Source of the DNA: Candidatus Latescibacterota bacterium
GTDB taxonomy: Bacteria > Latescibacterota > UBA2968 > UBA8231
NCBI GenBank assembly: GCA_965243025.1
Contig: CBDETY010000003.1
Location: forward strand, 1,664,001 to 1,728,000
DNA length: 64,000 bases
Reading direction: 5' to 3'
The notes below the pieces were generated by a model. It did no database searches and was not told the DNA's origin. It saw only the letters and a list, made by a program, of their open reading frames with translations. The first letter of the stretch is position 1. Each line of letters starts with the position of its first letter. This document shows, piece after piece, positions 32,296 to 36,869 of the stretch. The position numbers and the translations under genes are program-made.

Positions 32296-33333
32296 ATGAA
32301 TGATGGACCGGCCGGGGTCCCGGCCTCCGGGCAGTCGCTTCCGGGAATCGGTCCACATCGGCCCAGGCGCCTGCGCCGCAGCCCGCTCATCCGCGGCATG
32401 GTCCGCGAGACCAGCTTGCGGACCGAAGATCTGGTGATGCCGTTTTTCGTCTGTCCGGGGGAGGGGGTGCAGCGCGAGATCCGGTCGATGCCGGGGAACC
32501 ACCAGCTCTCCATCGACCTCCTGGTCGAGCAATGCCGTGAAGTCGCCGGTTTGGGGATTCCAGCCGTACTGCTGTTCGGGATTCCCGGGGAGAAGGATGC
32601 GGTCGGGACTTCCGGGTACGACCCGGACGGGATCGTCCCCGCGGCGACCCGCGCAATAAAGGACGCCGGCCTGGACCTGCTCCTCATCGCCGACGTCTGC
32701 CTTTGCGAGTACACCGATCACGGGCACTGCGGCCTTCTCGATGATCGAACCGCGGGAATGGACGGTCCCGAGGTCGACAACGACCGCACCGTGGAGTTGC
32801 TGGCGCGGGAGGCTCTGGTCTACGCCGAAGCCGGGGCCGACATGATAGCCCCTTCCGACATGATGGACGGGCGCATCGGACGAATCAGGGCGATGCTCGA
32901 TGGCAACGGTTTCGCGGGCGTTCCCATCATGTCGTACGCGGCGAAGTACGCCTCCGCTTTCTACGGGCCGTTCCGGGAAGCCGCCGAGTCGGCGCCGCAG
33001 ACCGGGGACAGGCGCGGCTACCAGATGGATCCTCCCAACAGGCGCGAAGCGATGCGGGAAATCGAGCTCGACCTGGCGGAGGGTGCCGACATCATCATGG
33101 TAAAACCGGCGCTGGCCTACCTCGATGTGCTGGGCGAAGCCCGGCGGCGTTTCGATGTCCCCCTCGCCGCCTACAACGTCAGCGGCGAGTTCGCGATGGT
33201 CAAAGCGGCGGCGGAGAAGGGCTGGATCGACGAGGTGCGCATCAGGGACGAAATTCTTGTCGGAATCAAAAGGGCAGGAGCAGACCTGATCATCACATAC
33301 TTCGCCAGAGATGTCGCCCCAGGCCTCGGCTGA
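32296..33333 (+). CDS. hemB: porphobilinogen synthase (Zn-dependent)
   Basis: [42 protein letters not shown]. Confidence 0.97.
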
Positions 33334-33384: not shown

Positions 33385-34329
33385 ATGAAGAACTACCTGA
33401 AAATCATGGCGGGATCGAGCAACCCTGAGCTCGCCCGGGAAATCTGCGATTATCTCGACTGCCCCCCGGGACGTCTGTCGATCGATCGCGCCTCAAACGA
33501 CACCATCAAGGTCCAGATCAACGAGAACGTCCGGGAGGACGACGTCTTTGTAGTTCAAACCTCCTGTCCGCCGGTGAATGACCACTTCATCGAGCTCCTG
33601 CTCATTATCGACGCCCTGAAATACGCCTCGGCGCGCCGCATAACCGCGGTGTTGCCTTACTACCCTTACGTGCGCTCCGACAAGAAGGACGAGCCGCGGA
33701 TTTCCATCAGCGCCCGTCTCGTCGCCGATCTGCTGGAAACGGCAGGCGCCGACCGCATCCTGACCATGACCCTTCATTCGCCCCAGATCGCCGCTTTTTC
33801 GCGCATCCCGGTCGATCAGCTGTGGGCGACCAACCTGCTGTGCAATCACCTGTTGCAGACCCGGGATCTCACCAACGCGGTGGTGGTTTCTCCCGACGTC
33901 GGCAGCGCTTACGAGGCGAACCACTACGCCCGCCGCCTCGAGCTTCCCCTCGCCATCATGGACAAGAGGAGAAAGGGGGACGACGAGGTCGCCGAGGTGC
34001 AGACCGTCATCGGCGACATCGAGGGCCGGGACGCGCTTCTGTTCGACGACGAGGTGCTGACCGGCAGCTCGATGATGGAGGCCATCCGCCTGCTCAAGGA
34101 CCGCGGGGCCCGGCGCATCCTGGCGGGATGTACCCACGGGGTTTTTTCAGGCGACGCCATCGCCCGCATAGAAGCCTCCCCGGTAGAGCTGTTTCTGAAG
34201 ACCAACACCGTACCGATGCCGCCCGGAACAGGTGCGGAAAAGATCGAGGCGATCTCGGTCGCGCGCCTTTTCGGCGATGCGATCAAGGCCATCCATCACG
34301 GGGAGTCGGTCAGCCGCCTGCTCGACTGA
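33385..34329 (+). CDS. prs: ribose-phosphate pyrophosphokinase, paralog 1
   Basis: ENVR..DVFVVQ, ASARRITAVLPY, RSDKKDEPRISI, LHSPQ, DKRR, DDEVLTG, ESVS.L. Confidence 0.9.
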   Translation: MKNYLKIMAGSSNPELAREICDYLDCPPGRLSIDRASNDTIKVQINENVREDDVFVVQTSCPPVNDHFIELLLIIDALKYASARRITAVLPYYPYVRSDKKDEPRISISARLVADLLETAGADRILTMTLHSPQIAAFSRIPVDQLWATNLLCNHLLQTRDLTNAVVVSPDVGSAYEANHYARRLELPLAIMDKRRKGDDEVAEVQTVIGDIEGRDALLFDDEVLTGSSMMEAIRLLKDRGARRILAGCTHGVFSGDAIARIEASPVELFLKTNTVPMPPGTGAEKIEAISVARLFGDAIKAIHHGESVSRLLD

Positions 34330-34358
34330 CGGAGCCGCCCCAAGCCCTTGAGGATCAC

Positions 34359-34520
34359 ATGGCGAGCAGATTCAGTATCATCTTCGAGTTGTGGGCCTTT
34401 ATGCAGGTGCGGAAGAAGTGGTGGCTGGGACCGATTTTCGCCACCCTTGTCCTGCTCGGGATGCTGATCGTCCTCACCGAGGGATCGGCGCTTGCTCCAT
34501 TCATTTACACGCTTTTCTGA
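34359..34520 (+). CDS. small membrane protein, DUF5989/SxtK-like (53 aa)
   Basis: MASRFSIIFELWAFMQVRKKWWLGPI...GSALAPFIYTLF. Confidence 0.85.
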   Translation: MASRFSIIFELWAFMQVRKKWWLGPIFATLVLLGMLIVLTEGSALAPFIYTLF

Positions 34521-34681
34521 TGGTGGACCGATTCCCGAATCCACAGTCGCTCACCCACCTTTCCCGCCTCTTTGACTGCCGGAACCCGGGAGACTTATGT
34601 TAATATGTAACAGTAAGTTCCGTCATTTTTTCGACGCCCTCCCCGCAGCGATACGGGCCCGGGATCAGCGGTCGAACACCT

Positions 34682-35227
34682 ATGGACAGTGTCGGTAAGG
34701 CCGAGGTCGATCGCTTGACTGATTTGATCAGGGACATCCCCGACTTTCCGAAACCGGGGATACTTTACCGGGACATTACCACCCTGCTCAAAGACCGATC
34801 CGGGTTGAGGGCGGCGGTCGCGGCGATGGCCGCCCCTTTCGGCGCCCCCGAGGTAGACATGGTCGTCGGGGTGGAAGCACGCGGCTTCATTCTCGGGGCT
34901 CCTATCGCGGTCTCCCTCGATTGCGGGTTCGTTCCGGTGCGGAAGTCCGGAAAGCTGCCTGGAGACGTTGTCGGGCAAGAGTACGAACTGGAATACGGGA
35001 CCTCGGAGGTGGAAGTACACCGCGATGCCCTGCACCCCGGGGACCGGGTGCTGATGGTAGACGACGTTCTCGCAACGGGCGGCACAATGGCTGCTTCCTG
35101 CCGCCTGCTCGAACAGCTCGGGGCAAACATCGCCGCAGTCAGTTTCCTGGTCGAGCTGAATGCTCTCCGGGGGCGCGACCGGCTCGGCCGGTACCGCGTC
35201 GAGTCTGTCATACAATATCCCGATTGA
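34682..35227 (+). CDS. apt: adenine phosphoribosyltransferase
   Basis: IPDFPKPGI..RDIT, EARGF, RK.GKLPG, LEYG, VDDVLATGGT. Confidence 0.96.
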   Translation: MDSVGKAEVDRLTDLIRDIPDFPKPGILYRDITTLLKDRSGLRAAVAAMAAPFGAPEVDMVVGVEARGFILGAPIAVSLDCGFVPVRKSGKLPGDVVGQEYELEYGTSEVEVHRDALHPGDRVLMVDDVLATGGTMAASCRLLEQLGANIAAVSFLVELNALRGRDRLGRYRVESVIQYPD

Positions 35228-35242
35228 CGACAAAGGTGCCAG

Positions 35243-35905
35243 ATGGCAAAGAGGGAAAGACCTACCAGGGCAGAGCTCGAGGAAGACCGTTTCGTCGAGT
35301 GGATCATGCAGGCCGCGGACTTCCTGAAGGAGCGGATGCAGTTCGTCATCGCCGCCGCCGCAGCGGCGGTGGTGATCGTCGTGCTGATCACCTACATGCG
35401 CAGCGCCGAGGAAAAGGCACGCCTGGAAGCGTCGGCGAAGTTCGGCCAGGTTCTGATAGCGGACGCGAACGGGGAGGCAACGCAGGCGATGGAGATCGCC
35501 GAACACCTGATCAGGGAAAATCCCGGGACCCCCGCGGCGGCCCAGGGAGTGGTCTACCTGGCCAACCGCTACTTCCACCAGGGTCGGCTCGACGAAGCCC
35601 AACGCCTGTACGAAACATACCTCGAGGACTACGGGGATGTGGACGTTCTCGTGTTCGCTGCCTGGAGCGGTGTAGCGGCCTGCATCGAATCGCAGGGGCA
35701 GTTCGCCCGGGCGGCGCAAAAATACGAGCAGTTTGCCGACCGGCACGATGGACAGCAGGGGGCACTGGCCCTGATGAGCGCTTCACGCTGTTTCGCCCTG
35801 GCCGGTGACACCGCGGCGCAGAAGAAGGCTCTGGGCCGAATCGCGCGCGATTTTCCCACCTCTCCCCTTGTCGCCAAGGCCCGCGAGCAACTGAGGAGGC
35901 TGTGA
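35243..35905 (+). CDS. membrane-anchored TPR protein (YfgM-like)
   Basis: N-terminal EDRF segment, single TM, TPR-like helices, FPTS C-terminus. Confidence 0.75.
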   Translation: MAKRERPTRAELEEDRFVEWIMQAADFLKERMQFVIAAAAAAVVIVVLITYMRSAEEKARLEASAKFGQVLIADANGEATQAMEIAEHLIRENPGTPAAAQGVVYLANRYFHQGRLDEAQRLYETYLEDYGDVDVLVFAAWSGVAACIESQGQFARAAQKYEQFADRHDGQQGALALMSASRCFALAGDTAAQKKALGRIARDFPTSPLVAKAREQLRRL

Positions 35906-35930
35906 GCAGGCTGCTGTCAGCGGAGAAGGG

Positions 35931-36869
35931 GTGATGACCAACAAGCTCAAGGTCTTCGCAGGAAACAGCAATCCCGACCTCGCGGCGAGAATCTGCGAAT
36001 CGCTGGGGGTGGCGCCGGGGGGCCTCGAGATCATCCGTTTCAGCAACGAAAACCTCAAGGTCAAGATCTGCGAGAACGTCCGCGGCTGCGACGTCTTTTT
36101 CATTCAGACCTCCTGCGCTCCGGTCAGCGAGCACCTGATGGAATTGCTCATCGCCCTGGACGCTTTGAAGTTCGCTTCCGCCGGACGCATCACCGCGGTA
36201 TTGCCATACTACCCGTATTCGCTCGCCGACAGCAAGGACGAACCCCGCATATCGGTCGCCGGCCGGCTGATGGCCGACCTGCTCACCGAGGCAGGCGCCG
36301 ACCGCATCCTCACCATGACCCTGCACAGCCCCCAGATCATGGGGTTCTGCAGAATACCGGTCGATCAGCTCAGTGGGGTTTCAACCATTTGCGAGGACTT
36401 TCGCAGCAGGGAAATAGAGAATGCCGTCGCCGTCGCACCCGACATCAGCCGCGCCAAGGTCACCGAGGGATACGCGCGTCATCTCGGGTTGCCGCTCGTA
36501 GTCCTCGACAACCGGCGAACTCAGGAAGGGGAGGCCGGGGACATCGGCGCAATCGGTGACGTCGAGGGAAAAAATGCCATTCTGTTCGACGATGAAATAA
36601 TAACGGGGGACTCCGTAATTGCCGGCTCCGAGGCTTTGGTAGCAAGGGGCGCTGAAACGATCTACGCGGGATGCGTGCACGGCACCCTCGCTGAAGCCGC
36701 TCTCCCCAGGATCGACAAGTCCATTCTGGCGGGGTTGACGGTGACCGACACGATCCCGCAGGCTCCCGAGGAAGACCACTCCAAACTCACCGTCCGTTCC
36801 GTGGCCGACCACTTCGCCAACGCGATAAAGGCGATTCACGAAGAGACTTCCATCAGTGCTCTCTTCTGA
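35931..36869 (+). CDS. prs: ribose-phosphate pyrophosphokinase, paralog 2 (several catalytic residues altered)
   Basis: LKVFAGNSNP, RFSNEN, ENVRG, ASAGRITAVLPY, LHSPQ, DDEIITG, SISALF. Confidence 0.88.
   Translation: MMTNKLKVFAGNSNPDLAARICESLGVAPGGLEIIRFSNENLKVKICENVRGCDVFFIQTSCAPVSEHLMELLIALDALKFASAGRITAVLPYYPYSLADSKDEPRISVAGRLMADLLTEAGADRILTMTLHSPQIMGFCRIPVDQLSGVSTICEDFRSREIENAVAVAPDISRAKVTEGYARHLGLPLVVLDNRRTQEGEAGDIGAIGDVEGKNAILFDDEIITGDSVIAGSEALVARGAETIYAGCVHGTLAEAALPRIDKSILAGLTVTDTIPQAPEEDHSKLTVRSVADHFANAIKAIHEETSISALF

Follow-up and report, generated by a model that had tools for sequence, protein, structure and literature searches.

Reciprocal active-site losses in two paralogous PRPP synthases from a family of Latescibacterota suggest a heteromeric enzyme

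5-Phosphoribosyl-1-pyrophosphate (PRPP), which donates the ribose of nucleotides, is indispensable, and PRPP synthase (PRS, also written PRPS) is a universal, essential chokepoint enzyme. Why, then, would a bacterium maintain two neighbouring versions of this enzyme, each of which appears to have lost a different part of the active site? The question is raised by a stretch of 64,000 nucleotides from Candidatus Latescibacterota bacterium (contig CBDETY010000003.1 of assembly GCA_965243025.1, positions 1,664,001 to 1,728,000), hereafter called the window, which carries two prs paralogs that we call A and B. An earlier reading of the letters of this DNA, the original prediction, held that A and B have complementary defects and that a mixed hexamer would build one complete composite site from the two. 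Having followed both genes through the family of bacteria to which the window belongs and through its phylum, we consider it probable that A and B together form a class I PRPP synthase of heteromeric type, in which each bent heterodimer would hold one live composite site.

There is little doubt about the family to which the two proteins belong. Both lie far over the cut-off of 113 bits for TIGR01251, the class I ribose-phosphate diphosphokinase profile (scores are listed in Table 1), and both exceed the cut-off of 297 for NF002320, with scores of 348.2 for A and 313.2 for B. Both phosphoribosyltransferase (PRT)-type domains are present in each protein (PF13793, PF14572, PF00156), with PF00156 in B reaching 25.7 bits, slightly under its cut-off of 26.3. 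The two proteins are 52% identical to one another. Their closest solved chains are 7pn0_A and 5t3o_A (E of 3e-92 for A and 2e-80 for B), the identities to solved PRS chains range from 44 to 58% (E from 1e-63 to 1e-92), and B can be aligned with such chains over 307 residues with gaps of just 1–3 residues. B is a member of the PRS family by descent, but judged from its sequence it is not a competent enzyme.

The reasons for this judgment become evident when individual residues are compared, for which B was aligned to chain 7xmu_A, whose numbering agrees with the E. coli numbering of PMC9232217 that is adopted here. The reference residues Phe35, Arg96, Lys/Arg99, His131, Asp170, Gly172, Lys194 and Arg196 correspond in the window to Ala, Arg, Lys, His, Asp, Gly, Lys and Arg in A, and to Phe, Leu, Ser, His, Asp, Ser, Asn and Arg in B. 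All the motifs quoted in the original prediction are present at the genes to which it had assigned them. To learn how these features are distributed among orthologs, we counted residues in the 120 best A-type and the 120 best B-type cluster representatives from a large protein collection, and all A-type and B-type counts given here refer to these two sets.

Each of the residues R96, K99, K100, H131, D170, G172, K194, R195, R196, D220 and T225 is present in 120/120 A-type proteins, in agreement with the claim that the first paralog keeps the Arg of YVRSDKK, the DKRR loop and the PDVG motif. Phe35 is found in none of them (0/120), and its position is hypervariable (A 29, S 27, T 22, E 16, G 16, others 10). 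The residue that follows, which is Ser in intact relatives, is Pro or Ala in 100 of the 120, and N37, D38 and N39 are retained in 105–114. The adenine-pocket motif of A was therefore only in part correctly described as lost: the Phe is gone and the next Ser is changed, but relative to the intact F-S-N-E-N motif the positions Asn37, Asp38 and Asn39 are mostly kept.

B-type proteins exhibit the reverse distribution. The residues F35, S36, N37 and N39 are each present in 120/120, as expected from the RFSNEN motif that B was said to keep, and R96, claimed to be lost from YSLADSK, is indeed absent throughout (0/120, with Leu in 118). The Gly missing from PDIS, G172, survives in just six of the 120. 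Two further losses had not been noted before, namely Lys/Arg99 (5/120, with Ser in 113) and the second Gly of the ribose-5-phosphate (R5P) loop (7/120). The loss of Lys from the DNRR motif is true of the window, where the residue is Asn, but is not uniform among B-type proteins; position 194 is unconstrained (K 40, R 35 and N 34 of 120), and R196 is present in 52. The ligands of ribose-5-phosphate and metal (H131, D170, D220, D221 and T225) persist in 114–120 of the 120. The same reciprocal pattern is seen in 19 A and 23 B sequences taken from loci, and what had been proposed from a single pair of genes is upheld across the family by the alignment of orthologs.

Such residues are rarely altered in the enzyme at large. 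In a background set of 150 diverse PRS representatives, 140 of the 142 with a residue at position 35 have F or Y there, R96 is R in 139/149, and K194 is K in 143/147. An unbiased scan of the 76 columns whose conservation across 32 canonical PRS is 85% or more reveals nine columns lost by A and eight lost by B, with one in common. A second scan considered the 156 columns that are conserved in at least eight of the nine closest single-copy relatives: 88 of these are retained by both proteins, three are lost by both and 45 are intermediate, and the remainder are divided into eight lost in A alone (with B retaining at least 90%) and 12 lost in B alone (with A retaining at least 90%). Some of the divergence lies outside the active site. 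The C-terminal Phe313 occurs in 0/120 A-type and 116/120 B-type proteins, and Gly306 has become Glu in 119/120 B-type proteins; G306 is placed near the allosteric ADP pocket of human PRS1 in the available text of PMC4363470. We also observed that the reciprocal partition beyond the active site involves residues 137, 176, 179 and 313 in A and residues 57, 273 and 305 in B. There are hints here that the allosteric sites may likewise be divided between the two subunits.

The meaning of this division can be appreciated from the way in which class I active sites are assembled. According to the sections of PMC12238573 available to us, one monomer contributes the FLAG region, which coordinates ATP, and the regulatory flexible (RF), pyrophosphate (PP), catalytic flexible (CF) and R5P loops of the other monomer carry out catalysis; in E. 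coli PRPS, as described in part of PMC9232217, F35 of the neighbouring chain π-stacks on the adenine. Both accounts bear out the original statement that the pocket is supplied by the neighbouring subunit. Because the FLAG region acts on the site of its neighbour, a FLAG hairpin matters only for the partner's site. In a bent dimer of A and B, the intact loops of A and the intact FLAG of B would create one complete site, and the degenerate loops of B would be met by the Phe-less FLAG of A in a dead site that gathers all the defects. By the usual architecture of the enzyme, we would expect a hexamer of composition A3B3, in which three sites are live and the other three degenerate. B would then resemble a prozyme, being catalytically dead and yet required, and A by itself would be badly impaired in ATP binding.

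Two aspects of the conservation data fit this arrangement particularly well. First, the FLAG of B-type proteins is invariant despite the decay of their own loops, as would be expected if it faces the live site of A. Second, the hypervariability of the Phe35 position in A fits a FLAG that faces a dead site, and suggests that A:A dimers are not the form that selection has maintained. Mutagenesis of human PRS1, so far as the available account of it goes, is also pertinent, since the F35A protein is without normal activity and the activity of K99A is not detectable. The A protein of the window has Ala at position 35, as in human F35A, and B has Ser at position 99. From these observations we infer that A pairs with B, probably with an A3B3 stoichiometry, and that each protein would be inactive alone.

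An alternative that deserves to be taken seriously, though we judge it unlikely, is that A is a self-sufficient homo-oligomer that tolerates the absence of Phe35 or has become less specific for its nucleotide as a result; B would then be a pseudoenzyme similar to the PRPSAP proteins of eukaryotes, a regulator or scaffold that modulates A and is dispensable for catalysis. Eukaryotic PRPSAPs are described in the portion of PMC12238573 available to us as dead partners of a fully active PRPS, but a FLAG that is invariant in 120/120 B-type proteins would be surprising for a mere scaffold. Classes II and IV of the enzyme, as presented in the accessible part of a 2026 preprint (10.64898/2026.06.01.728777), are active with remodelled adenine contacts; at position 35 of A, however, no single residue has taken the place of Phe, contrary to what would be expected of a new function, and the human F35A result likewise speaks against self-sufficiency. 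Finally, although every cis catalytic residue is retained in all 120 A-type proteins, we found A without B in 0/63 family genomes that are at least 85% complete, contig-edge cases aside.

The distribution of intact forms is equally informative. We examined nine single-copy relatives, drawn from five other families within the phylum, and each carries F35, R96, K99, G172, K194, R196 and F313; none of the substitutions that distinguish A and B was found in these presumably functional single-copy members. The hemB gene adjoins prs in five of the nine, just as it adjoins A. Among 153 genomes of the phylum, B-type proteins (at least 65% identity) were found in the window's own family only. These facts bear on a second and quite improbable explanation, in which B has a separate function that does not involve pairing with A, for example as a sensor or regulator responding to ribose-5-phosphate or PRPP, and A acts alone or with some other factor. 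That B keeps its ribose-5-phosphate and metal ligands and has lost the residues for ATP and the transition state is the pattern that such a sensor might display. However, a separate function leaves unexplained why the loss of Phe35 from A is confined to genomes with B, why the trans-acting FLAG of B is invariant, and why the A and B genes are so strictly linked.

Purifying selection acts strongly on A and B alike. Across six pairs of closely related genomes, the ratio of nonsynonymous to synonymous substitution rates (dN/dS) is 0.042–0.081 for A and 0.053–0.091 for B, and the corresponding values for apt and the TPR gene of the same locus are looser, at 0.11–0.20. A census of the 63 family genomes, in which a third prs was counted at E<=1e-20, found A and B together in 57, comprising 47 genomes with no third match (15 of them single-contig, or closed) and 10 genomes with a third prs. 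Of the remaining genomes, one has B only, at a contig edge, three have a canonical prs alone, and in two no prs was found. When five of the pair-only genomes were searched with TIGR01251, only A and B were over the cut-off, and one of these genomes has an extra partial match of 90 bits below it. Because PRPP is indispensable and no third prs was found in 47 genomes, the pair must supply PRPP there.

The third copies themselves require comment, since this genome contains one. A fully canonical prs encoding 313 amino acids is located 3.4 Mb from the pair (G000:C3:5156936-5157856, also recorded as L002:1486-2427), and both of the other genomes in the genus carry it as well; it is 47% identical to B. 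The original prediction had considered the case of a third canonical prs that leaves the other two genes unconstrained. The third gene does exist here, but both paralogs are constrained nonetheless. Elsewhere in the family, the extra copies fall into three or more unrelated types (L058, L063, L059, L060 and L061, in genomes G016, G006, G012, G004 and G033), and by motif they resemble 'Class IC' (FSEGNL / DKER / DDFTIS) and 'Class XI' (FSNDC / AGSKRR) of the 2026 preprint. This diversity suggests that third copies were acquired sporadically and more than once, and do not go back to an ancestral third gene. The notion that A and B are both decaying, redundant copies made dispensable by a third canonical prs, as one might suppose from this genome alone, is in our reading already refuted by the dN/dS values of 0.04–0.09 for both genes and by the 47/63 family genomes without a third prs, and it also fits poorly with existing third copies of at least three unrelated types.

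Several observations nevertheless weigh against the heteromeric enzyme as we envision it. If the second site were simply dead, it would not be clear why B retains H131, D170, D220, D221 and T225, or why A retains N37, D38 and N39; this 'dead' site may still bind ribose-5-phosphate, PRPP or phosphate. The F35A result, itself drawn from a partial account, concerns the human enzyme, and homomers of A may keep residual activity. Moreover, a third, fully canonical prs is present in this genome, its genus and seven other family genomes, and so the pair is not necessarily essential here. The history of the two genes is also less straightforward than the complementary losses might imply. In two quick trees, A, B and the single-copy forms fall within one clade with support of 98–99 by the Shimodaira–Hasegawa-like approximate likelihood ratio test (SH-aLRT), the clade interior is not resolved, and the stem of B is long (0.83–0.92 vs 0.33–0.39 for A). 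The trees do not give A and B as sisters, and in an approximately unbiased (AU) test an exclusive A+B clade costs 25.3 log-likelihood units (p-AU 0.015), a value to be read with the caveat that the tested group was chosen after the first tree had been seen and that B is a long branch. A simple history of duplication followed by subfunctionalisation is therefore not established, and B may have arisen through an earlier duplication or through transfer between members of the phylum.

On balance, the computational results all favour the composite-site heteromer of the original prediction, which draws its support from residue conservation, the intact single-copy relatives, purifying selection, the status of the pair as the only prs found in 47/63 genomes, the published trans action of the FLAG and the human mutants; we regard the prediction as supported in part, given the third canonical copy in this genome and a PRPSAP analogy that suits B only loosely. 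We would advance a more ambitious proposal only tentatively, and do not ourselves expect it to hold in full: the whole family might make all its PRPP with an obligate A3B3 enzyme, neither gene product being active alone, with three live sites and three degenerate sites that perhaps act as sensors. Having lost ATP binding and catalysis and retained the ligands for ribose-5-phosphate and metal, the degenerate sites may serve as built-in regulatory sensors for R5P, PRPP or inorganic phosphate (Pi).

The genomic setting of the two genes is remarkably stable. To survey it, a scan with one genome per species yielded 48 loci, of which 22 are orthologous to that of the window, and two loci from closed genomes bring the orthologous set to 24. 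The gene order hemB-A-apt-TPR-B on one strand is conserved in 22/24 of these, and the other two start within the cluster at a contig end. The paralogs had been described as next to apt, and apt does lie between them, where its product would consume PRPP. Two start codons are possible for B, a GTG at 35931 that gives 312 amino acids and an ATG at 35934 that gives 311, as in public protein P0004. The small hydrophobic open reading frame (ORF) of 53 amino acids that matches DUF5989 was concealed within a spurious ORF of greater length in an alternative reading of the ORF list. A scan for promoters and terminators between 32000 and 39000 produced chance-level counts (six terminator-like sites vs 4.6 expected) and is silent on operon structure; at these chance-level counts, no terminator-like site was found in the + strand intergenic spaces from A to B.

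Table 1. Features of the hemB–prs locus, in window coordinates
Feature	Coordinates	Strand	Remarks
hemB	32296-33333	+	first gene of the same-strand run
prs paralog A	33385-34329	+	314 aa; predicted catalytic subunit; TIGR01251 348.8 bits
A, FLAG region RASNDT	33487-33504	+	Ala36 occupies the Phe35 position
A, regulatory flexible loop YVRSDKK	33667-33687	+	Arg96 and Lys99 equivalents present
A, PDVG	33892-33903	+	
A, catalytic flexible loop DKRR	33961-33972	+	Lys194 and Arg196 present
DUF5989 membrane ORF	34359-34520	+	53 aa; between A and apt; PF19451 83.8 bits
apt, adenine phosphoribosyltransferase	34682-35227	+	PRPP consumer; NF002636 233 bits
TPR_21/YfgM-like TPR protein	35243-35905	+	PF09976 35.3 bits; PF13428 39.2 bits
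prs paralog B	35931/35934-36869	+	predicted catalytically dead, FLAG donor in trans; TIGR01251 301.8 bits
B, FLAG region RFSNEN	36036-36053	+	Phe present
B, degenerate flexible loop YSLADSK	36216-36236	+	Arg96->Leu; Lys99->Ser
B, degenerate PP loop PDIS	36438-36449	+	Gly172->Ser
B, degenerate catalytic loop DNRR	36507-36518	+	Lys194->Asn
metallophosphoesterase, then rsgA		+	after B in the same-strand run

Among the orthologous genes we encountered three possible gene breaks: an A ortholog with an in-frame TGA (G043:C103:21300-22232), a B ortholog that is split between two frames in a closed genome (G062:C1:4492392-4493299), and a locus (L026) at which A and B are both fragmented. These may be assembly errors or cases of real decay. 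When representatives of a 50% clustering were searched with a B profile, the B pattern was seen in none of the listed representatives with all scored positions filled, a result that has little bearing on how far B-type proteins reach. One of the proteins encountered, the truncated P0260, carries G172S, R196Q and G227A, and the FLAG and flexible-loop positions are missing from its sequence. Five other PRS-like representatives (P0350, P0253, P0304, P0327 and P0338) are without three to five of eight key residues, with P0350 retaining 3/8, and PRS pseudoenzymes other than B may therefore exist elsewhere.

Considered together, A and B are a real, family-wide and selected pair of what we predict to be complementary half-enzymes, which probably act as a PRPP synthase whose heteromeric state is obligatory or nearly so. 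If the more ambitious proposal above is true, A and B would give bacteria, as far as we have found, their first described example of a prozyme-type enzyme and also of a PRPS pseudoenzyme partner, and they would offer a clean natural case of complementary degeneration of an active site shared between subunits. Degeneration of this kind is a textbook prediction of both subfunctionalisation and constructive neutral evolution, and to our knowledge clear natural examples are few. A pair with reciprocal losses would show that obligate heteromers can arise via complementary degeneration across a shared active site. There is a practical consequence as well: A and B are both entered as 'ribose-phosphate diphosphokinase' in public records, so that metabolic reconstructions count B as an enzyme and miss the possible dependence of A. 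The hypothesis is open to a simple test, given that it concerns two small soluble proteins and a standard assay.

How does the proposed enzyme compare with those already known? The canonical homohexameric class I enzymes (those of E. coli and B. subtilis, and human PRPS1) have the same fold, the same loops and the bent-dimer and parallel-dimer architecture that we expect for A and B. They differ in that one gene gives rise to six identical composite sites, whereas two genes are predicted here to yield three live and three degenerate ones. Bacteria typically have a single PRPS, as stated in the consulted portion of PMC12238573, and in the full-text literature that was searched we came across no bacterial PRPS described as a heteromer or a pseudoenzyme. 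The 2026 survey of the PRPS family (bioRxiv 10.64898/2026.06.01.728777, PMC13252144) reports, in the parts available, 37 pseudoenzyme events, all of them eukaryotic; it finds catalytic residues retained across prokaryotic classes, and its main text is without a bacterial pseudoenzyme or heteromer. Its 'Class IB' includes the A orthologs, of 314 amino acids, from the genomes of three of our loci (L007, L013 and L014; Supplementary File 5). The B proteins of these three genomes were not found in the survey tree, and the B motif has 0 matches in the part of the survey sequence table that was searched, which as a partial table gives no sign of absence. We also considered whether B might be the preprint's 'Class XI' or 'Class IC' and rejected both, since by motif those classes match unrelated third copies (the L060/L061 type and the L058/L063 type).

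A closer resemblance is found in eukaryotes, in which heteromers of PRPS with the dead partners PRPSAP1/2 (PAP39/41) are established according to the relevant sections of PMC12238573. As described there, a PRPSAP is a class I PRPS paralog without catalytic residues that keeps the FLAG and the dimer interfaces, and it is thought to form the minimal dimer with an active isozyme. B is similar in having lost catalytic residues and retained the FLAG, and the analogy drawn by the original prediction holds loosely, to the extent that B is a predicted dead protein with an intact FLAG. In other respects the analogy does not extend to B or to its partner. B is without the large non-homologous insertion that PRPSAPs have in the catalytic flexible loop, and it retains its R5P and metal ligands, among them D170 and T225, both of which PRPSAP2 has lost in the comparison available from PMC12238573. 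B is also of independent bacterial origin, falling in a clade with bacterial single-copy forms, and does not derive from eukaryotic PRPS1. The active partner A is itself damaged through the absence of Phe35, and mutual dependence is predicted, unlike PRPS1, which is active alone. The predicted A/B enzyme is in this sense a new bacterial variant of the eukaryotic theme of a PRPS with a dead partner, the twist being that the loss is reciprocal.

The nearest mechanistic parallel to the predicted A/B enzyme is the trypanosomatid prozyme, for example that of deoxyhypusine synthase (DHS). In DHS, in S-adenosylmethionine decarboxylase (AdoMetDC) and in PRMT1 of these organisms, an enzyme of impaired catalysis gains activity when it assembles with a dead paralog into a hetero-oligomer, and both DHS genes are essential, as set out in the available portions of PMC3663545 and PMC5201418. 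A and B are similarly kept together under selection, with both genes in 57/63 genomes and dN/dS values of 0.04–0.09. The prozymes belong to other enzyme families and to eukaryotic parasites, and the mechanisms would also differ: rather than relief of autoinhibition, the mechanism predicted for A and B is that a hairpin acting in trans completes a site lying between subunits.

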